A stretch of DNA of 27,348 nucleotides from a virus (Duplodnaviria > Caudoviricetes). How positions within the stretch are numbered: the stretch's first letter is position 1; each line of letters begins with the position of its first letter. The notes beneath the pieces were generated by a model. It worked only from the letters and a program-made list of their open reading frames with translations, was not told where the DNA came from and searched no databases. The position numbers were made by a program, and so were the translations under genes. This document shows, piece after piece, positions 129-12,340 of the stretch. The DNA lies in IMG/VR virus record IMGVR_UViG_3300030451_003083, positions 1-27,348 of that record; one strand, written 5' to 3'.

Positions 129-976
129 TGGGACTTAAAGATATAAATAAAGATAGAACAATAGTAATTACCGGAAAACATGGTAGCGGTAAATCTACTA
201 TGGCAAAGGAGATGTTTGAAGATGCTATTATCTACTACGCTAATGATATGGAAATACATGATGTCTTTTCACTACCAAAAGAAAGAGGAATAATTATTGA
301 AGATATTCACTACAAGCCAAAGACAGATGAGATTCTAAATGTTCTCAGAAACTATGGCGGTACTGTAGTAATGACTTCTCTAAATCAAAAAGATGTTCCT
401 TCTTCTATCAAGAATATGGTGAAGTTCAAGAGAGCAGGTAAAACCAAATATCTCAGAGATGAGATTAAGGAATTAGCACCTAGATGTGAAGAACCATTCT
501 CTAATGAGAGAGATATGTTTTCTTTGATTATGGAATATCTAAAGAATAGTGATAGAGACTTAGTAGTAGATTTACTGAAGTTTAACAAACCTGCGGATAC
601 TCAAATTATGACTTGGTTAATTGAGAATATTCATCCAAACAAAATACTGTTTGTAGATGGAGTTGTTAAGAGAAGATGGAGTCAAAGATACTTCTATGAG
701 ATGTTAGGATATTCTTACAATGGTAAGAATTATTCAAGACCATCTTTTCCAAAGAGAGGTTCTTATTCTAAGATACCATATCTTTGTAGAAGATTAAAAG
801 TTAGAGATGAAAGATTGCTTAGGCAATTATTGAAAGATGAAGAGTTCGCTAATTGGGCGAGAACTAAACTAAATAATTCTGAATGTAGATTATTAGGTTT
901 AGGAGAGAAGAAAAGAAAGAAAAGAAAACCGAAAATAAAAATGAATAAGTTGAGTGATTATTATGTTATGGACTGA
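128..976 (+). CDS. rfcL: Clamp-loader (RFC) large subunit-like P-loop ATPase
   Basis: Walker A GKHGSGKST and degenerate Walker B IIIEDIH. A basic linker precedes a C-terminal PIP-like motif (MNKLSDYY), as in archaeal RFC-L. Lies directly upstream of rfcS. Confidence 0.6.
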   Translation: MGLKDINKDRTIVITGKHGSGKSTMAKEMFEDAIIYYANDMEIHDVFSLPKERGIIIEDIHYKPKTDEILNVLRNYGGTVVMTSLNQKDVPSSIKNMVKFKRAGKTKYLRDEIKELAPRCEEPFSNERDMFSLIMEYLKNSDRDLVVDLLKFNKPADTQIMTWLIENIHPNKILFVDGVVKRRWSQRYFYEMLGYSYNGKNYSRPSFPKRGSYSKIPYLCRRLKVRDERLLRQLLKDEEFANWARTKLNNSECRLLGLGEKKRKKRKPKIKMNKLSDYYVMD

Positions 977-3452: not shown

Positions 3453-4286
3453 ATGGGATTATTAAATAATAATATGGAAAATGTAGAGAAGGATATACAA
3501 GCACAAAAGAAAAGTATCTTCGGAAAGAAGCAAGAAGAGTTCAACAATTCTTTTGCAGATTATATGAAGAAGAAAAGAGAAGCAAAGAATTCTAGAATGG
3601 TTCTAGGTATTTGGGGAGAACCTAAATGCGGAAAGACAGGAATTGCTTTGGATTTTCCCGACAGAAATATCTGTGTCCTAGATTGGGACAAGGGAGTAGA
3701 TTCTACATGGAGAGAATGGCACAATTCTTCGGAAAAGATTGATGTCTATTGCCCGATTGTTATGAACAAAGATAATGTTGTAGATATTGACAAGAGTGAT
3801 GATAACTCCCACGCCTTCGTTAGATATGTTAGACAAAAGATTGAGGAAGGAGACAATCCTATCTTTGTCTTTGATGGAGTAGATACTTGGTTCCAATCTT
3901 GTTTACTCAAAGTAAATCCAAATCCTAGAGTAGTTACTAAAGTAATGCCATACCAATATGGTGCAAGAAACAATATCTTCTATCATCTATTGGAAACTAT
4001 TTACCAACTGAACTGTGATGTAATTTATATTACTCACGAAACAGAGAAGTATCTAGATAACTCTCCTGTAGGAATGATGCCCAATTGGAAAGATTGGGGA
4101 GGAAAGTTAGAACAAGAAATCTATTGCACTAGAAAGAAAGTAAAGGGTGAAACTCACTTCGTTGCAGAACTAGTCGGTAGTAGAACTAATGGAAATTTAG
4201 TTGGTAAGTCTTGGACTGTTAGAGAAGGCAATCCTCCTAACATTAAGTGGAATGGTATTCCGGAACTACAAGAGGGTAAAATATGA
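3453..4286 (+). CDS. RecA-superfamily ATPase, Sak4/AAA_24-like recombination/annealing protein
   Basis: Walker A GIWGEPKCGKT, followed by CVLDWDKG, Walker B FVFDGVD and VIYITHE. This pattern is typical of phage Sak4/AAA_24 ATPases. Start is 3444 (GTG) or 3453 (ATG). Confidence 0.7.
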   Translation: MGLLNNNMENVEKDIQAQKKSIFGKKQEEFNNSFADYMKKKREAKNSRMVLGIWGEPKCGKTGIALDFPDRNICVLDWDKGVDSTWREWHNSSEKIDVYCPIVMNKDNVVDIDKSDDNSHAFVRYVRQKIEEGDNPIFVFDGVDTWFQSCLLKVNPNPRVVTKVMPYQYGARNNIFYHLLETIYQLNCDVIYITHETEKYLDNSPVGMMPNWKDWGGKLEQEIYCTRKKVKGETHFVAELVGSRTNGNLVGKSWTVREGNPPNIKWNGIPELQEGKI

Positions 4287-5023
4287 AATTTGAAATTGAT
4301 GCAAAAGTTCTCAGTAATGCACTTTCAGATATTCAAGGAAAGGGTAAGTATGGATTAGTGAATACTAATCTACACGATTTAGTATCCTGTTCTTTGGAAG
4401 GAGATGTATTAGAGATTTGGAATGCCAATACAACCCTTAGTCTGAATATCAATTTGCAGGTCACTAATCATAGTGATGGAGAAATTGTTTTTGATGCAAA
4501 GGAATTGCTACCTTTTCTGAAGAAGTTCAATGGAACGATTACTGTAGAGGGTGGAGATGTTCTAACTATTGCAGACGAAGAACAAAATGTTACTCTCCCT
4601 AGAATAGTATTGCATCCTAATCAGAATGCAATCTCTAGACTAAGAGGAATGTTAAACCATATTCAGTATGAAACTCCCGAAGAACTTTTTCTATTCGGGA
4701 ATGGAAAGTTCGAAGGAGCCTTTACCTTACATGCGGATTATTTTAAAGAAACAATAGATATGTGCGAACTTGTAAAGAGTGGAATCTACAGATTAGATTA
4801 CACAGGACAAGAACTTACCATCAGTTCTCAAAATACTCCGACTAATAAATACTCTAGAGAATTACCAATAGAGAATGCCATTGGAGAACCGGCCACTGTA
4901 GAGTGGTCTTCTCCACTACACAAATTTTTCAAAGGAGAAATAAACTTCTATGTAAAGGATGAGTTTCCACTTCTTCTAATTTCTGAAGACAGAAAACTAA
5001 TCTGTGCGCCACATACTAGGTGA
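4283..5023 (+). CDS. pcn: DNA sliding clamp (PCNA-like)
   Basis: 246 aa (archaeal PCNA size) with a two-domain alpha/beta pattern. It begins MKFEIDAKVL and ends FPLLL...KLICAPHTR (cf. LAPR). It lies between the clamp-loader genes and the polymerase. Confidence 0.75.
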   Translation: MKFEIDAKVLSNALSDIQGKGKYGLVNTNLHDLVSCSLEGDVLEIWNANTTLSLNINLQVTNHSDGEIVFDAKELLPFLKKFNGTITVEGGDVLTIADEEQNVTLPRIVLHPNQNAISRLRGMLNHIQYETPEELFLFGNGKFEGAFTLHADYFKETIDMCELVKSGIYRLDYTGQELTISSQNTPTNKYSRELPIENAIGEPATVEWSSPLHKFFKGEINFYVKDEFPLLLISEDRKLICAPHTR

Positions 5024-5027
5024 TGTA

Positions 5028-6767
5028 ATGATAATTGATGTAATGAATAATAATGATATATTTTTATCTTGGAGAGAAAACGGAGAAAAGAAGATTGATA
5101 TTAAATCTTTCAGACCGTATTTCTATGTCGAAGATTCACATAAAGAAATTGCATCTTACAATGTGTCAAAGTATTTGAAAAGAGATTTTGAATATGAAAG
5201 CGGAGAATGGTTTTCTTTAGAAGGAACTAAACTAAAGAAAGTCTATGTTGATGAATATAAAGATATGAAAAGAGCAAGAGAAAGATTCTCCCAAACATGG
5301 GAAGCAGATGTTCCTTATCATAGAAGATATGCAGTAGACAATCTAACCGAGTTGCCCGAATACAATATGCGTAAATGGTATTGGGATATGGAATGGCAAC
5401 AAGGTGGAGAACATGATGGTTGTATTACTACTATTGTAGCGTATGATAATTATGATGAGAAGTTTACCCAATGGGTTTGGTTTCCTAATGAATTAGAATA
5501 TGATATAGTGGATACCCCTATTGATAGAGATGAAAAACAAATAGGAAGAAGAAGGGTATTTGACGATGAAAAGAAAATGATTGAAAGTTTCATCTATCGT
5601 ATGGTTTCGGCAGACCCCGACATGTTAATTGCATGGTTTGGTCTAAAGTTCGATTTGCCAAAACTTCTAGAGAGATGTTGTGTATTAGGAATCAATCCTC
5701 TTATTATGTCTCCTGTAAAAAGAATACAGGGAATCAATTCTACAAAGGATGGTTTTTCTTTCAAGAACAAAGATGGATTCTCTCCTATCTCTCAACCGAT
5801 TGGCGGAAGACTGTGTTTGAATCTAGACCTAGCATTTGAAAGACAGTGGAATGATTCTCAAAGAGGCACATTACCTTCTCTAAGTCTAAACTATATTTCT
5901 GAAACTATCTTAGGAAGAAACAAATTAGAATCTGAGAAGTTTCCCGACCCTAACGAATTCTATCGTAGGGCTTGGTTAGAAGATACAGAAACCTATCTGA
6001 AGTATGCTATAATAGATGTAGAACTAATGGTGGAAATAGATGAAACTAATTTCTGTAGTGAAGCGATTATTGCCCTACAAAGATTACTAGCAGCACCATT
6101 CGATTCTTGTTTCTATGCAAGTCACATGGCTAGTGTTTACTTTATGAGAAATGCTTGGTGGAAAGCACCAACAGGATACAGGCCTAAGAACAAGAAATGT
6201 TCTAACTGTGGACATATCAATGATAAGTCTGCAAAAGAATGTTCTAAGTGTAAAGAATCTTTGACCTATCAAGGAGCAATGGTTTACAATCCTCTTAGTG
6301 AGAATACTAATGGATTGCATTTAGGTGTAGCGGCATTCGACTTTGCTGGACTGTATCCTTCAATGATATTGGCTCGCAATATCTCTTTTGAGACTATTAG
6401 TGATACACCCACTCCTTTTGCTGCTAATCTAGCAACACCAAAGGATTTCAGCCATACAGACAAAGAGGACATGGTTTACTTCAAGACTGATAAGTTGGGA
6501 TTGCTACCAACGGCAGTTCTAGAATTGAAAGAATTGAGGAATGAATATAAACGAAGAATGAAAGAAGCAAGGCTATCGGATGACGGAGAATATCAGAAAT
6601 GGAACAATAACCAAATGGCCGTCAAGAGATTGATGGCTTCATTCTATGGGGTGTTGGCATTTGCTGGATTTAGTTGGTCGAATGTAAAGTTAGCAGAAAG
6701 CATTACTGCAAGTGCAAGAGAAGCAATTAGAAGTGCGGCATTCAAAGCAAAGGAGATGGAAGTATGA
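5028..6767 (+). CDS. polB: Family B DNA polymerase, N-terminal subunit (N-domain, 3'-5' exonuclease, motifs A and B)
   Basis: FRPYFY and EADVPYHRRY in the N-domain; ExoI DMEW, ExoII FDLPKL, ExoIII YAIID; motif A DFAGLYPS; motif B KRLMASFYG. It ends ITASAREAI...KEMEV* just before motif C. SD GGTGA precedes ATG 5028. Confidence 0.95.
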   Translation: MIIDVMNNNDIFLSWRENGEKKIDIKSFRPYFYVEDSHKEIASYNVSKYLKRDFEYESGEWFSLEGTKLKKVYVDEYKDMKRARERFSQTWEADVPYHRRYAVDNLTELPEYNMRKWYWDMEWQQGGEHDGCITTIVAYDNYDEKFTQWVWFPNELEYDIVDTPIDRDEKQIGRRRVFDDEKKMIESFIYRMVSADPDMLIAWFGLKFDLPKLLERCCVLGINPLIMSPVKRIQGINSTKDGFSFKNKDGFSPISQPIGGRLCLNLDLAFERQWNDSQRGTLPSLSLNYISETILGRNKLESEKFPDPNEFYRRAWLEDTETYLKYAIIDVELMVEIDETNFCSEAIIALQRLLAAPFDSCFYASHMASVYFMRNAWWKAPTGYRPKNKKCSNCGHINDKSAKECSKCKESLTYQGAMVYNPLSENTNGLHLGVAAFDFAGLYPSMILARNISFETISDTPTPFAANLATPKDFSHTDKEDMVYFKTDKLGLLPTAVLELKELRNEYKRRMKEARLSDDGEYQKWNNNQMAVKRLMASFYGVLAFAGFSWSNVKLAESITASAREAIRSAAFKAKEMEV

Positions 6768-7006
6768 AAGATAAAATTAGTTCTTGGATAGATTATTTAG
6801 ATAATCTTAATTTTGTATCTAGCATTCTTGCTCTTGCTATTATTTCGGCAGTATTATTTTTTATTTGTGTTTGCTTCTATTTTTCTTTCTTAGAAAAAGA
6901 AGCGGCTAATAGAGGAATTGTAGAGGGAATTGTAGTATTTATGGTATCGCTAGTTGCCCTACCAATATTAGCAGTAACATCAATATTTTATGAGGTGAAA
7001 GAATGA
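6764..7006 (+). CDS. Small membrane protein with two predicted TM helices
   Basis: Two long hydrophobic stretches; ATGA overlap with the polB N-subunit stop. Confidence 0.65.
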   Translation: MKDKISSWIDYLDNLNFVSSILALAIISAVLFFICVCFYFSFLEKEAANRGIVEGIVVFMVSLVALPILAVTSIFYEVKE

Positions 7007-7200
7007 CATTAGAAACACATGTAGATGTAATAATTTGGCACGAAGATATGGAAACATTAGAAATAACTATGCAAGAAGTTAGAGAGATTATTGAATATAT
7101 GACTAACCGAAAGCGAAGATTCGAAGTTTCCGTTGGAAGAACTGCGGGAACAGATGAGAACGGCAACTATGTGATGGGATATCCGGAGAGAGAAGAATGA
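7003..7200 (+). CDS. Hypothetical protein (65 aa)
   Basis: SD GAGGTGA and ATGA overlaps at both ends. Confidence 0.7.
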   Translation: MTLETHVDVIIWHEDMETLEITMQEVREIIEYMTNRKRRFEVSVGRTAGTDENGNYVMGYPEREE

Positions 7201-7409
7201 ATACTTATTTCAAAAAATGGATAGAAGAAGCCTTAGTTTCAATTGAAGGTGAATTTACTGCAAAGCACATTCTAACAAGAATAGTGGACAAGCATGGCAC
7301 TAGCCCATATGTAGGAACTGTAACTGCAATCGGTTGGTATCTAACCAAACTTGACAATGTTGAACAGGTATGCAAAGGCTATTCATCTAAAACTTATAGA
7401 AAGGTGTAA
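7197..7409 (+). CDS. Small putative winged-helix DNA-binding protein (70 aa)
   Basis: Helix-FTAKHI-helix-TVTAIGWYL-beta hairpin (KTYRKV) pattern; coupled start. Confidence 0.5.
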   Translation: MNTYFKKWIEEALVSIEGEFTAKHILTRIVDKHGTSPYVGTVTAIGWYLTKLDNVEQVCKGYSSKTYRKV

Positions 7410-7412
7410 AAA

Positions 7413-7544
7413 ATGATGATGGACAAGACAAACGAATTATTAGAAGAATTGCTCGCTATGATAGCAAAGTCAAACAAGATATTGATGATGGTAAATATCG
7501 TAAACATAGCAACCATCTTAACAATAGTAACGGTGATATTATGA
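7413..7544 (+). CDS. Small protein with C-terminal TM helix (43 aa; not in ORF track)
   Basis: MMMDKTNELLEELLAMIAKSNKILMMVNIVNIATILTIVTVIL*. SD AAGGTG; the stop overlaps the next ATG. Confidence 0.65.
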   Translation: MMMDKTNELLEELLAMIAKSNKILMMVNIVNIATILTIVTVIL

Positions 7545-7711
7545 ATTTAGAAGAAGAAATAGAGAATCTTAAGCAAAGAATCAAAGGACTAGAAAAGGAC
7601 TTAGATTATCAAATAGAGCAAAACCATAACAATACAAAATTATGGAATGCAGTAGCAGAAATACAAGATGAACTCCTCAAGAAAGGATTTTGGTTTAACC
7701 ATCAGTTGTGA
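7541..7711 (+). CDS. Small coiled-coil protein (56 aa; not in ORF track)
   Basis: MNLEEEIENLKQRIKGLEKDLDYQIEQ...KGFWFNHQL* with a heptad pattern. SD GGTGA and ATGA overlap. Confidence 0.65.
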   Translation: MNLEEEIENLKQRIKGLEKDLDYQIEQNHNNTKLWNAVAEIQDELLKKGFWFNHQL

Positions 7712-7716
7712 TTAGT

Positions 7717-8001
7717 ATGAAACATGGGCTTCAATTTAATAAAAATAATACATGTAAAAGAATAATAAGAGCCTTTGAAGAAAGTGGAGAGAAGGCGTTG
7801 ACTACTCAAGAAATAGTCAATATTCTTTTTCAGCAAAGAACTAGCACAGGAAAACTGTTTACTAACAACTTTACTAGACACACTATAACTCAAACACTTA
7901 ACAAATATCCCTTCTTTACAAAAGTAGGTAGTAAAACCGTAAAGGACAGAAATACAGGCTACTCAGTAAACTGTTGGTCTATAGTAGAGGAGGAAGAGTA
8001 A
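7717..8001 (+). CDS. Putative winged-helix DNA-binding protein
   Basis: IIRAFEESGEKALTTQEIVNIL...TRHTITQTL...F.KVG...WSI resembles a wHTH pattern. Start is 7708 (GTG) or 7717 (ATG). Confidence 0.55.
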   Translation: MKHGLQFNKNNTCKRIIRAFEESGEKALTTQEIVNILFQQRTSTGKLFTNNFTRHTITQTLNKYPFFTKVGSKTVKDRNTGYSVNCWSIVEEEE

Positions 8002-8336
8002 TGCCTAGAGGTTCAATCAAGAGATTAGATTGGCCTAGTCTAAGTTTGGCTATGGATGAGATTTTCCTACAACTAGAAGTTGATGAAATATGGTTAGAGG
8101 ATTTAGTTCCTAAAGTTATTGATAGGTATCAGAAAATTTCGGGTCACAAAGTAGTTAATAGAAACTCCTATCCTATTTTCCGATTTAGAGGGGCTTTCAA
8201 TAAAGAGGCACTCTCTAAAAGGGGTTGGTATCTTAAGAGAAAGACTAGATACTTTTTTAATACTCTTAACGGTAAAAAAACAGTTTACAGAAAGGCAAGA
8301 TTAAGTAAGGCATTTAGGATTGGTGAAGAAGAATGA
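8001..8336 (+). CDS. Basic hypothetical protein, possibly nucleic-acid binding (111 aa)
   Basis: TAATG overlap at 7999-8003, SD GAGGAGG, K/R-rich C-terminal half. Confidence 0.65.
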   Translation: MPRGSIKRLDWPSLSLAMDEIFLQLEVDEIWLEDLVPKVIDRYQKISGHKVVNRNSYPIFRFRGAFNKEALSKRGWYLKRKTRYFFNTLNGKKTVYRKARLSKAFRIGEEE

Positions 8337-9217
8337 AGGTAGTTTATGGACATACAGATTCTATCTATGTCAAAATAGATTCTATCGAAAAGGCAAAAAA
8401 AGCCGTTATTGAAATCAATGACCATGTTAGGAAGTCTTTCCCAAATCTACTCAATCTTCCGGAGCATCCTGTAGTTTTGGAGTTTGAAAAGTATTACTCT
8501 TCACTAGGGGTTGGTTCTACAAAGAATAGAAATGCCGGACTTATTTCGTGGAAAGATGGCTATGACCTAGATGAGCCGGAATTTGTGATGACGGGCTTTA
8601 CTGCTAAAAGAATATCTGAGACTCCTTTAGCAAAAGATGTTCAAATGACAGTTTTGCGGAAGTGGTTGAATGGAGAGTCTAGAAAAGAAATCAATTCTTG
8701 GCTACATTCCAAATATAATTCAATAATAAATGGCGATTTTTCGCTTTTGGATATAATTAAAAGAAGCCGACTCAAAGAAAATAGATTTAACTTAAAATGT
8801 CCTTCTTGTAATAGAAAATACACGGTGCAAGACTGCTATTCTATAGAATACTGCACCAAATGTGGTAAATCTAAGGAAAAATTCGTGACAGTTGATGGTA
8901 AGAGGCCTATTTTTGGTGAAGGTATTGCCGGAATCCTATATGGGAGAGAAAAATTGGACATGGAATACGATGATTCGTACTTATTCGTAAAGGTAAAGTC
9001 AAATGATACCTATACTCATCCTTTAACAGATGAGGAAAAGCAAGTAGAATATTTTTCTGCAACAACTTATGATGATTTTAAGAATGTTAAGCCAAACTTA
9101 GAACATTATGCAAAAGTTGTGATGAAAAAGGCCGAACCTGTTTACAAGGCAATGGGTTGGGAATTAGATTCGATTAGAACAGGAAGCACTCAAAGCACAT
9201 TTGAAGATTGGTGGTGA
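8333..9217 (+). CDS. polB: Family B DNA polymerase, C-terminal subunit (motif C, palm, thumb, PIP-like tail)
   Basis: Starts MKVVYGHTDSIYV (motif C variant), then LEFEK, KNRNAG and MTGFTAKR. Has a Cys4 insert and C-terminal TQSTFEDWW. It has its own SD (GGTGAAG) and ATG. Confidence 0.92.
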   Translation: MKVVYGHTDSIYVKIDSIEKAKKAVIEINDHVRKSFPNLLNLPEHPVVLEFEKYYSSLGVGSTKNRNAGLISWKDGYDLDEPEFVMTGFTAKRISETPLAKDVQMTVLRKWLNGESRKEINSWLHSKYNSIINGDFSLLDIIKRSRLKENRFNLKCPSCNRKYTVQDCYSIEYCTKCGKSKEKFVTVDGKRPIFGEGIAGILYGREKLDMEYDDSYLFVKVKSNDTYTHPLTDEEKQVEYFSATTYDDFKNVKPNLEHYAKVVMKKAEPVYKAMGWELDSIRTGSTQSTFEDWW

Positions 9218-9224
9218 AATAAAA

Positions 9225-10118
9225 ATGACATATGAACAAGAAATGGAAGAGATGGATGAATATACCTATCAGTGGTTGCCGGAAAATTATGATAATGAAG
9301 ATGAGCCTATTTTGAAGATTACGAAGTCTTCAATGATGAGCCACCTTTGGTGTCCTAAGAAATATCAGTTTGGATATATTGAGAGATTACCTCAAGACCA
9401 AACAGAAGCGATGAGAAAGGGAACTTATGTTCACAATGCTAGAGAGGCTTTCTTCAATGACTTTGATATCAAGAAAGCAGAACAAATGTCTCATAATGAA
9501 TTGCTAGACTATTGCACAAGTTTGTTTCCTGTGGATGACTACTTTGATGACTATATTGCAATTGCTGCATTTGAGGCAAATAGGTTTGCTGAGTCTAAAC
9601 TAGAAGGAAAATTGGATGACTATCTACCCCCTTGTAATGAAGGAAAGTTTGATTGCGAGATTGTAATTCCTGCAAATACAGACCCGAAGTATCCTCTAAG
9701 CAGAGAATACAAAATACACCTTCAAGGAATTATTGATAGAGTATTTGAAGAAGATGGCTCTTATATTCCAATGGAATTAAAGACGGGCAAGTGGACTGAT
9801 AGTAAAGTTTCTAGCATGAGAAAAGAAATGGCTTTCTATAAAATACTTATTGAGAATTCTAGTGATGCAGTATTAGAACAAGCAGGACTACAACCTAATG
9901 TTCCTGTTACACATTGGTCTTGGTATTATCCAACTTCCAATTATATTTATGTTGAAGAAGTAAAGAAATCTTCTGTTACTTCAGTAATGAAAAGTATTGC
10001 TAGGTTGATTTATGCTTATGAGCAAAAGAACTTCCCTGCAAAGTTTTTCTATAGAACTTGCGCTCATTGTTCTTACTTTGGAATTTGTGAAGCCGCTCAA
10101 GAAGATACATGGGTGTGA
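9225..10118 (+). CDS. Cas4/RecB-like PD-(D/E)XK exonuclease with 4-Cys (Fe-S) staple
   Basis: ITKSSM..HLWCPKKY, G..VH, GIIDRV...PMELKTG, EMAFY and C-terminal CAHCSYFGIC. SD GGTGGTGA precedes ATG 9225. Confidence 0.85.
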   Translation: MTYEQEMEEMDEYTYQWLPENYDNEDEPILKITKSSMMSHLWCPKKYQFGYIERLPQDQTEAMRKGTYVHNAREAFFNDFDIKKAEQMSHNELLDYCTSLFPVDDYFDDYIAIAAFEANRFAESKLEGKLDDYLPPCNEGKFDCEIVIPANTDPKYPLSREYKIHLQGIIDRVFEEDGSYIPMELKTGKWTDSKVSSMRKEMAFYKILIENSSDAVLEQAGLQPNVPVTHWSWYYPTSNYIYVEEVKKSSVTSVMKSIARLIYAYEQKNFPAKFFYRTCAHCSYFGICEAAQEDTWV

Positions 10119-10123
10119 TAATT

Positions 10124-10492
10124 ATGAATGAATTAATCAAGAAAAAAGTCCTATCTAGGAATTGGTCTTTCAATGAAATATCAAATCTAAAAGATACAAT
10201 ACTAAAACTATCTAGTGAACTATATTCTGAAATGAAACTACAGGAAAGATTCGATATGCTAAGAGAACTTAGGATTAGAGAAGATTATGTAGGATTTACA
10301 TTTGAAGATATTATGCGACAAGCAGTAATGGCTTCTCTTCAAGGAGAAGTTGCAGGAACAATAAAAGATATGCTAAACAATGCAACAATAAATTTTGGTG
10401 ATAACAATGAAGTTTCCGAGAGAAGTGTGGGCAGGGAGTCACATCAAGAACGCCCCTCAGATGAAAAGGAAGATAGTAAGAACGAAGAGTGA
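10124..10492 (+). CDS. Hypothetical helical protein
   Basis: SD GGGTGTGA precedes ATG 10124. The last ~28 codons overlap the primase gene. Confidence 0.65.
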   Translation: MNELIKKKVLSRNWSFNEISNLKDTILKLSSELYSEMKLQERFDMLRELRIREDYVGFTFEDIMRQAVMASLQGEVAGTIKDMLNNATINFGDNNEVSERSVGRESHQERPSDEKEDSKNEE

Positions 10493-11453
10493 ATATACTG
10501 CGTTTGTAAAATCGCAGAATAATCGCACTAATGTTTATACTACAGTCTATGACTTTGAGAAGTTTAGTGAGATGGCAAAGATTGACTCTAGTGTAATTCT
10601 AGATAGAATCTTTTTGGACTTTGATGCTCATGGAGATAAGTTGGACAATGCCTTTGAAGATTTGAAAATGGTTCTAGAATATGTCATCACAAATGACATA
10701 GAACATAATTGCTTTTTCTCCGGAAGAGGTTTTCATCTATTTTTGTTTGGAGAAGTTACTAATGATATTCGTAATATTCAAGCATACTTTAGAGTAATTA
10801 AGAATTATCTAAAACAGAATACAAACTATGAGATTACTCTCGATGATAGAGTTGGACAATCCACAAGATTAAGAAGAGTCCCTAATACTGTAAATATGTC
10901 TAGTAGAAATGCAGACGGAATACCATACTATTGTATTCCTATTTTCTACGAAGATTTGGTAAGAGGATTAGACCATGTTCTCAAGTTGGCAGAAAAGCCT
11001 AGACTTATACCTAAAAGAAAAACAGGTTCTAAGAAAATAGTTTGGCCTAAAGCCAAGCCACTAGATTCTGTAAAGGGAGAAGTATCTCCTGTAATCTTTG
11101 AAGGAAGACTTCCTCTACTTCCTTGTTTGCATAGTGCAATCATGGTAGAGAATCCTAGTCATATGGCTAGGGCATATCTTGTATCTTGGTATAGAGATTT
11201 ATTATCGGGATGTAGGAAAGGACTAAACAATGAGCAAAAGTCCGAGATTTTGGAAAAGGTTGTAGATGAAATTAAATGGATTGCTACAACGCATGATGAA
11301 GTGTGGCTAGATTGGGATGAAGCCGAAACTAGAAAACATGCAAGATTCACGGTATTTGGGGAATACTCCACGCCCCATTGCCAAACCAAACTGATACCCG
11401 AAGGGTATTGTATTGGTAGATGTTGGAGATACCCCGAAGAGGTGAAAGAATGA
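10407..11453 (+). CDS. priS: Archaeo-eukaryotic primase, catalytic PriS domain fused to PriL C-terminal Cys4 domain
   Basis: Motif I IFLDFD, motif II FSGRGFH, motif III region DRVGQSTRLRRVPNT. The C-terminal part LPCL...PSHMAR...YSTPHC...YCIGRC matches the PriL-CTD pattern. SD GGTGA precedes ATG 10407. Confidence 0.88.
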   Translation: MKFPREVWAGSHIKNAPQMKRKIVRTKSEYTAFVKSQNNRTNVYTTVYDFEKFSEMAKIDSSVILDRIFLDFDAHGDKLDNAFEDLKMVLEYVITNDIEHNCFFSGRGFHLFLFGEVTNDIRNIQAYFRVIKNYLKQNTNYEITLDDRVGQSTRLRRVPNTVNMSSRNADGIPYYCIPIFYEDLVRGLDHVLKLAEKPRLIPKRKTGSKKIVWPKAKPLDSVKGEVSPVIFEGRLPLLPCLHSAIMVENPSHMARAYLVSWYRDLLSGCRKGLNNEQKSEILEKVVDEIKWIATTHDEVWLDWDEAETRKHARFTVFGEYSTPHCQTKLIPEGYCIGRCWRYPEEVKE

Positions 11454-11581
11454 ATATAGATAGTTTAACACACGCAAGTATATGTTTAGATAACGCATTA
11501 GAAGAAGCACTGAAAGGAAATCCCGAAAAAGCAAGGGAATACATTCGTAAGGCAAAAGAAAGTTTGGAGTGGTTTGAATGA
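11450..11581 (+). CDS. Small helical-hairpin protein (43 aa; not in ORF track)
   Basis: MNIDSLTHASICLDNALEEALKGNPEKAREYIRKAKESLEWFE*. SD GAGGTGA and ATGA overlaps at both ends. Confidence 0.6.
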   Translation: MNIDSLTHASICLDNALEEALKGNPEKAREYIRKAKESLEWFE

Positions 11582-11664
11582 AACAATTAACACTAGATGA
11601 TTTTGGATTAATGATGGAAGGACAAACTAAGTTAAGTGATTTTTATGTTAGTGATAGACAGTAG
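11578..11664 (+). CDS. 28-aa micropeptide with two tandem PIP-box-like motifs (not in ORF track)
   Basis: MKQLTLDDFGLMMEGQTKLSDFYVSDRQ*. SD GGAGTGG and ATGA coupling to the upstream stop. It fills the gap before the XPF gene. Confidence 0.6.
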   Translation: MKQLTLDDFGLMMEGQTKLSDFYVSDRQ

Positions 11665-12340
11665 AGAAAAGAAAGGTTCTCTACTCGTAGATTTGGTAGA
11701 GCAAAAAGCCAAGTCTATGAATATCAAAACAGAAAAGAAATGGCTTGAGATTGGAGACTATGTTTTTGATGATGTTTGCTTTGAAGCAAAGTCCGTTGTA
11801 GATTTTATTGGTTCTGTAATGTCTAAGAGAATTTGGACTCAGATTGACAATATGGATAGACACTATAACCATAACATCGTTATTATCTATGGCTCTCTTA
11901 CCGAAGGCATTAATAACATAATGCAGAATAGCAAATCTAAGTTGCCTCCTCCTGCGAGGTCTGTAATGCTAAACAATAAGTTTCTAGGTGGTTTAGGAAG
12001 AATCACATTAGATACAGATTGTAAAGCATTTTGGGTTCCAACGGAGACAGAAGCGGCTAAGATAATAACTGCAATCTGCAAAATGAAACCGATAGAAAGA
12101 GAAGTAATAAGACCGGAATTATTCAAAAGAATTACTACTGACGATTTAAGATTAGATTTGCTATCGGGCATAAAAGGCTTATCAGTTAAGAAAGCCAAAG
12201 AACTCCTAAAGGAGTTTGGTTCCATTATGGAAATAGGGGAACAGACGGTTGACGAACTGAAACAAATAGATGGTATCGGAACTACCATTGCCGAAAGAAT
12301 ATTGAAAGTTCTGAACAATGAAGATAAGGTGAAAATATGA
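11645..12340 (+). CDS. XPF/ERCC4 (Hef-like) structure-specific nuclease with HhH domain
   Basis: LVIDSRE, LEIGDY and FEAKS..DF..S (ERKxxxD variant); C-terminal HhH2 (IKGLSVKKA, IDGIGTTIAERI). Confidence 0.9.
   Translation: MLVIDSREKKGSLLVDLVEQKAKSMNIKTEKKWLEIGDYVFDDVCFEAKSVVDFIGSVMSKRIWTQIDNMDRHYNHNIVIIYGSLTEGINNIMQNSKSKLPPPARSVMLNNKFLGGLGRITLDTDCKAFWVPTETEAAKIITAICKMKPIEREVIRPELFKRITTDDLRLDLLSGIKGLSVKKAKELLKEFGSIMEIGEQTVDELKQIDGIGTTIAERILKVLNNEDKVKI

Follow-up and report, generated by a model that had tools for sequence, protein, structure and literature searches.

A 28-aa open reading frame lying between an accessory ORF and an XPF nuclease gene in a viral replication operon raises two questions: whether it is a gene, and what a peptide consisting of two PIP-like motifs would bind. 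We addressed both with the whole 27,348-nt stretch of viral DNA in which the micro-ORF lies (hereafter, the window) and with its relatives.

The micro-ORF and its replication operon

The window, a virus record of 27 kb, has its replication genes grouped in one operon, comprising an RFC pair, a RadA-like ATPase, a clamp, a split family B polymerase (PolB), a Cas4-like nuclease, a primase-like gene, XPF, a putative helicase and a DnaQ-like exonuclease. Pfam matches and a fold search placed the split PolB, clamp, RFC and nucleases in one module, and the gene set and split PolB match those of group B magroviruses (extracts of PMC5434244; PMC10768690). By gene content, and not by a reference tree, the window is assigned to the group B magroviruses, which are viruses of marine Poseidoniales. 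No capsid gene was identified within the window. Seven small accessory ORFs separate the two PolB halves (6764-8336), and a related 47-aa ORF (L299) lies in that gap in several relatives. The features used below are as follows.

941..964, + strand: PIP-like tail of the RFC-large-like (RFC-L) gene, MNKLSDYY; KLSDYY in 14 of 20 homologues; overlaps the start region of the next gene
4283..5023, + strand: viral sliding clamp with PCNA fold; model pLDDT 95; no Pfam match
9191..9214, + strand: PIP-type C-terminal tail of the second half of PolB, QSTFEDWW; 79 of 80 homologues end Q-x-x-[LIMF]-x-x-aromatic
10407..11453, + strand: primase-like gene; label based on gene order and on the gene set of magroviruses, without a Pfam match
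11450..11581, + strand: accessory ORF of 43 aa (53 aa from the first ATG, 11420), directly upstream of the micro-ORF
11566..11572, + strand: SD-like GGAGTGG, followed by the ATGA stop/start overlap; GGAG at -12 of the micro-ORF
11578..11664, + strand: 28-aa tandem PIP-like micro-ORF, MKQLTLDDFGLMMEGQTKLSDFYVSDRQ; found in 26 of 162 XPF loci, window included
11584..11604, + strand: motif 1, QLTLDDF, with an invariant G-L after it; scores 15.8 bits on the viral-tail profile
11623..11643, + strand: motif 2, QTKLSDF; invariant in 14 haplotypes; 17.7 bits on the viral-tail profile
11636..11639, + strand: SD-like GTGA at -9 of the XPF ATG, within the S-D codons of motif 2 (AGT GAT)
11645..12340, + strand: short-form XPF/ERCC4 nuclease with HhH domains; no C-terminal PIP-like tail

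The micro-ORF thus follows the primase and the 43-aa gene and precedes XPF. It begins at an ATG that shares bases with the TGA ending the 43/53-aa ORF (ATGA), and its 3' end overlaps XPF by 20 nt, the XPF ATG being at 11645. The SD, the ATGA coupling and the overlap with the XPF start had all been given in a preliminary description of this DNA and were confirmed from the sequence. The gene at 4283-5023, called a viral PCNA in the same description, was borne out as a PCNA fold by structure modelling and fold search, the best match being the archaeal PCNA of A. fulgidus (1rwz; Z 21.1, rmsd 2.6, 213 aligned residues). The 43-aa ORF is variable and is missing in several relatives that retain the micro-ORF. 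The peptide itself had no Pfam match and no usable ESM Atlas match; note that gene callers would tend to miss a 28-residue ORF. Separately, a structured RNA at this site was rejected as a candidate, with a fold z-score of +1.67 against shuffles and no Rfam match.

Conservation of the peptide and its wider family

XPF loci were collected as the best 80 of 175 in viral contigs, the best 80 of 235 in metagenomes and one in genomes, with overlap between the sets. The micro-ORF was present in 25 of the 161 collected loci, which together with the window represent 14 DNA haplotypes, and XPF identity was at least 85% in all carriers; at one locus (L233) the upstream DNA was too short to test for it. 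The gene is dispensable, because 136 of the 162 loci lacked it within 300 nt upstream of XPF. In addition, the tandem peptide was looked for in the near-complete records G004 and G005 and none was found. In the carriers, the distance from the micro-ORF to the XPF ATG was constant, and the ATG was found in all 14 haplotypes (one codon later in three); the gene before it varied, being either the primase directly or several small ORFs.

Residues Q3, L6, F9, G10, L11 and E14-F22 were invariant across the 14 haplotypes. The Q, L and F positions (1, 4 and 7) proposed earlier as clamp-binding residues are thus conserved in both motifs of all haplotypes, in motif 1 despite synonymous codon changes. 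Over codons 3-19, pN/pS was 0.18 in the micro-ORF's own frame, versus 0.30 and 1.42 in the other plus-strand frames and 0.12 in XPF. The reverse frames gave 0.97, 1.74 and 0.20, the low last value presumably because third positions are shared. The variants comprised 10 synonymous and 9 non-synonymous changes (P = 0.001 at equal rates and 0.02 at kappa 4), a rough test since the variants share ancestry. These results show that the micro-ORF is under purifying selection, and it is a real gene.

In XPF trees, the micro-ORF carriers formed one well-supported group, which also contained L180, a locus without the 67-nt cassette. Loss of the cassette in L180 is likely, with a sister position still possible (AU p = 0.07). 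Note that the XPF protein tree of 93 rows was a quick version. Among GenBank phages, the only XPF match was at 30%. The search of genome contigs gave one locus, in a bacterial MAG. A 2.1 kb contig (JBMTKL010000122.1) encoding an XPF of magrovirus type (72% identity) was assigned to an Acholeplasmataceae MAG, probably through contamination.

A reading of the ORF as clade-specific was rejected when a wider tandem pattern with free spacing found loci outside the clade. Two narrow DNA patterns recovered only 12 and 11 clade contigs besides chance or unrelated matches. The scan with free spacing (8-18) covered 33 of 64 parts and gave at least 120 loci, so that all family counts are lower bounds. 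The motifs were in frame and open in at least 56 of these, many of which are chance matches inside long proteins, and relatives of the window's replication genes were found in at least 9 of the 120 loci listed. Outside the clade, at least 15 loci from about five lineages had tandem-motif micro-ORFs of about 26-39 aa. These were located at several places in the replication module or elsewhere, such as after the primase (L402, L437), before an ssb-like gene (L391) and among other small genes (L427, L432). Eight family loci represent one peptide type, and the five examined are directly behind a PolB ending PKAYGWW; a search for relatives with unsplit PolB yielded little. The Q-to-Q spacing in the 15 loci listed was 13 in 12 cases, 14 in two and 10 in one, where 8-18 was allowed. 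Conservation of Q, L/F, D/E and F among the scan matches is no independent evidence, because the pattern forced these residues. The F-G-hydrophobic extension also recurs across the family.

The closest arrangement was found in L403 and L457, where MRQTTLFEFGLRIEGQTTLEDFGLVFEE-type 28-mers are ATGA-coupled between primase and an XPF that is 53-56% identical to that of the window. These 28-mers share 13 of 20 core residues with the window's peptide and terminate at a stop codon of their own, 2 nt short of the XPF start, so that motif 2 is retained there without overlap with XPF or its SD. Judged from these homologues, the peptide stands alone and is older than the window's clade.

Several larger proteins with similar words were also seen. 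In two viral contigs (L270:15568-15807, minus strand, in G005; L374:801-1034), coiled-coil-like proteins of 78-79 aa have a single PIP-like tail, ending QTSLSDF or QTSLQDF, and sit in a cluster of small genes starting M-x-W-K/R. A 172-aa protein of the M-x-W-K-x-I type (L426:674-1192) has three N-terminal near-repeats of RQTSLxEF at 10-residue spacing and is possibly a clamp binder. In L409, L446 and L462, proteins of 77-82 aa encoded behind a PolB-like end (PKKYGW in L409) carry a CxxC pair together with two PIP-like motifs at 14-residue spacing; the L409 match is at about 701-763. GC-rich phages (L141, L143, L149, L155; match at 1501) encode a 92-100-aa protein that begins MSQLSFDGF, a word resembling the bacterial clamp-binding motif.

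PIP likeness and the clamp addressed

According to the preliminary description, both motifs fit Q-x-x-L-x-x-F-(F/Y). This pattern was too strict: position 8 of motif 1 was G in all 14 haplotypes (QLTLDDFG), and that of motif 2 was Y in seven, D in six and N in one, its variability arising because the codon overlaps the XPF start. The canonical PIP box is given as QxxhxxAA in extracts of PMC4929162, and the two motifs agree with it at positions 1, 4 and 7 and lack the aromatic residue at position 8. On the other hand, both motifs in all haplotypes fit the single-aromatic euryarchaeal pattern QxxLxxFx, the consensus given for Haloferax volcanii in extracts of PMC7776575. The basic flanks of canonical boxes are also lacking, as the peptide is net acidic (3 K/R versus 5 D/E); for human PCNA, acidic flanks lower affinity (extracts of PMC6881253).

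The viral-tail profile was built from 33 distinct viral PolB and RFC-L tails. Among 8,492 7-mers of the window's long ORFs, a single one outscored both motifs, namely the PolB tail, itself in the training set. When the 66 nt were base-shuffled 200,000 times, a pair of Q-x-x-[LIM]-x-x-aromatic motifs arose in only 3 shuffles, in a post-hoc test on one stretch. Hence, of the two tandem PIP motifs described previously, a conserved, selected and stand-alone PIP-like pair stood and the canonical two-aromatic form did not. The micro-ORF likely encodes a motif-only peptide of two PIP-like motifs, which by its sequence is no canonical PIP box and which we infer to be a PIP decoy.

As for the origin of the pair, the DNA of motif 2 matches that of the RFC-L tail (KLSDYY) at 22 of 29 nt within the window and at 24-25 of 29 nt in L277, as would be expected from duplication of the RFC-L 3' end. 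Since the L403/L457 homologues make the motif older than this resemblance, duplication is less likely than convergence or an exchange of 3' ends at a later time.

We next consider which clamp such a peptide would occupy. In G010, the gene in the clamp slot (L514:11512-12258) encodes a magrovirus-like sliding clamp without detectable sequence similarity to the window's clamp. Its model (pLDDT 85) matched beta clamps and archaeal PCNAs in Foldseek at E of about 1e-11, whereas comparison with the profile of the window's clamp gave no match (E 0.22; hhalign 7%), and the terminal A-P is missing. The G010 PolB ends PKAYGWW, without a Q-type tail, so that this clamp and polymerase possibly represent a re-evolved clamp-client code. 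The G010 micropeptide nevertheless has the same motif pair (Q-T-T-L-x-E-F) at the same spacing. In G006, the RFC-L tail RTLRLEGWF is unlike the micropeptide of the same genome. Given that viral clamps and client tails diverge and the peptides do not, a common conserved target is suggested, most simply host PCNA. We therefore favor, at about an even chance, a free decoy peptide that would sit in the PIP pocket of a PCNA, probably that of the host, with the comparison being one between viruses.

Some observations count against a host decoy, namely the nearness of motif 2 to the viral RFC-L tail, the single conserved aromatic residue per motif, the acidity of the peptide and the dispensability of its gene. 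The main rival, which we regard as unlikely but deserving the most weight among the alternatives, is a weak competitor on the viral clamp that would tune the exchange of PolB, RFC and nuclease or late clamp release. The micro-ORF is inside the replication operon, the RFC-L of one relative ends MKQLNLGDF, resembling motif 1, and the viral clamp has a PCNA fold with a conserved C-terminal A-P and P229. In the relatives, A242, P243, P229 and S209 of the viral clamp are kept at 90% or more, and these residues presumably line the PIP pocket. Given the kept pocket residues and the nearness of motif 2 to the RFC-L tail, some binding to the viral clamp is predicted to be likely. However, such a role does not readily account for the same motif pair in G010 beside a very different clamp and PolB tail, or for the many relatives with similar clamps of which most have no peptide beside XPF. 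A complex prediction from viral clamp and peptide alignments gave a score of 0.13, with a mark of 0.32, the controls not being folded, and counts neither for nor against an interaction; the first row of the peptide alignment was the 38-aa ORF of L002, with 10 extra upstream residues.

If host PCNA is the target, the peptide would be translated by ATGA coupling together with primase, XPF and helicase, and each motif would insert its Q, L and F into the PCNA pocket as archaeal PIP boxes do, with the second copy raising pocket occupancy. Host PolD, PolB, FEN1 and RFC would then be displaced from host PCNA. Viral PolB might keep the divergent viral clamp via its two-tryptophan tail, with which it could outcompete the peptide there. 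Host replication and repair would slow, and the viral replisome would be favored. Note that, by PCNA geometry, a spacing of 13 residues cannot reach from one pocket to another within a single trimer; the second motif may thus contribute through rebinding, or else connect two rings. In a bolder version, which we consider quite improbable, peptides of the magrovirus motif-only family would sequester host PCNA by cross-linking its rings face to face in pairs, making the 13-residue spacing functional. Such clamp stapling as a mode of host replication shut-off was not found in the literature searched.

The hosts of magroviruses are among the most abundant archaea of the surface ocean. With the host clamp plugged, the virus would more easily gain control of DNA replication, and no mechanism of host take-over by magroviruses was found described in the literature searched. 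If the host-decoy reading is true, the peptide would represent motif mimicry by an archaeal virus in minimal form, would explain how a virus with its own clamp jams the host clamp selectively, and would offer a natural PCNA-inhibitor scaffold.

Among known systems, the p21 peptide competes for the PCNA pocket, phage Gp168 blocks the DNA channel of the clamp rather than mimicking a docking motif, and, to our knowledge, SIRV2 encodes no clamp of its own. The euryarchaeal C-terminal PIP boxes of PolB, PolD, the RFC large subunit, FEN1, RNase H2 and NreA have the same Q-x-x-L-x-x-F core (extracts of PMC7776575 and PMC4929162), and the virus's own PolB and RFC-L tails score much like the motifs on the viral-tail profile. 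The viral peptide, however, is motif only: it has two copies, lacks an attached enzyme and has no conserved aromatic residue at position 8. A functional precedent in the cell is TIP, a small (64 aa) archaeal inhibitor of PCNA-partner interactions with a putative N-terminal PIP, which in vitro prevents PCNA from stimulating PolB and FEN1 (extracts of PMC4929162). TIP is, however, cellular, confined to Thermococcales, and has one putative PIP and a PH-like C-terminal half, compared with a viral peptide of 28 aa that is motifs only; no homology between the two was seen. The C-terminal PIP peptide of p21(Cip1), a replication inhibitor, was the source of the PIP definition (extracts of PMC4929162). 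It is eukaryotic and has one motif, two aromatic residues and basic high-affinity flanks (extracts of PMC6881253), unlike the acidic two-motif viral peptide. SIRV2 Gp1, one of the SIRV2 proteins that bind host PCNA, is a precedent for the proposed decoy as an archaeal virus protein engaging the host clamp, since it binds host PCNA3 (extracts of PMC5537682), but it is thought to serve viral replication and is no motif-only peptide. Phage Gp168, likewise a small viral protein, is bound to the host beta-clamp according to the title of PDB 7evp and differs in being bacterial. No motif-only PIP peptides of archaeal viruses, and no tandem PIP-like viral peptide family, were found in the main texts of the literature searched; the term PIP was absent from the magrovirus literature searched, and a term search of the main text of PMC11706807 returned no mention of PCNA or clamp.

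Other partners and the relation to XPF

The motifs might instead bind another conserved partner that recognizes Q-x-x-L-x-x-F words and is not a clamp. The non-aromatic position 8 and the recurrent F-G-hydrophobic extension are in keeping with such a partner; however, the strong match to the viral PolB and RFC-L tails and the place of the gene among replisome genes make it improbable.

Slightly less probable still is a trans-acting adaptor, in which one motif would sit on the clamp and the rest of the peptide on XPF or primase, thereby substituting for a PIP tail missing from XPF. The viral XPF consists of an ERCC4 nuclease and HhH without a helicase, as in PCNA-dependent short XPFs of the crenarchaeal type. 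A C-terminal PIP-like tail was absent from 81 of 81 XPF C-termini, all of which end KVKI, whereas the crenarchaeal PCNA-dependent XPF carries a C-terminal PIP box. The XPF of S. solfataricus requires PCNA (extracts of PMC7776575), and the peptide adjoins XPF both in the window's clade and in L403/L457. On the other hand, family members also occur behind polB, before ssb or at a distance from XPF, primase joins XPF directly in 123 of the 136 loci without the ORF, and two motifs leave little space for a second interface.

Another explanation is that the ORF is a translational-coupling leader bearing the XPF SD, with an inert peptide whose motif would be a by-product of SD codons. In fact, AGT GAT of motif 2 forms the SD-like site of XPF, and synonymous variation is low in codons 14-22 (pS 0.22 versus a median of 0.51 in XPF windows). 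However, codons 3-11, which are remote from the SD, gave a pN/pS of 0.19. Furthermore, an h-x-[DE]-aromatic word in that register was found at only 6 of 311 SD-led gene starts, two of which are this micro-ORF, and L403/L457 retain motif 2 without SD overlap. The leader reading is thus largely refuted and very improbable. The XPF SD overlap may add constraint on motif 2, but it leaves motif 1 and the non-overlapping homologues unexplained. In relatives lacking the ORF, SD-like words before XPF are mainly at -12 to -9.

Finally, the +1 frameshift into XPF suggested in the preliminary description, by which slippage at GAT TTT T would fuse the two motifs to the nuclease as a clamp-binding leader, is hardly credible. 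The frame relation is indeed +1, but only 7 of 14 haplotypes have the slip-prone TTT-T, the remaining seven having TTT-G or TTT-A, and the next codon is TAT, GAT or AAT and no stop. A shift would have to take place within GTG ATT TTT, downstream of a stop codon in the frame of XPF. XPF has an SD-like GTGA and an ATG of its own, and the homologues stop before XPF or sit elsewhere, the peptide being missing altogether from most XPF loci.

The overlap of motif 2 with an SD-like site has counterparts in the window, where the PIP-like tails of RFC-L (941-976) and PolB (9191-9225) also overlap the SD-like site of the next gene, so that one set of bases serves both as a docking motif and as a ribosome-binding site.
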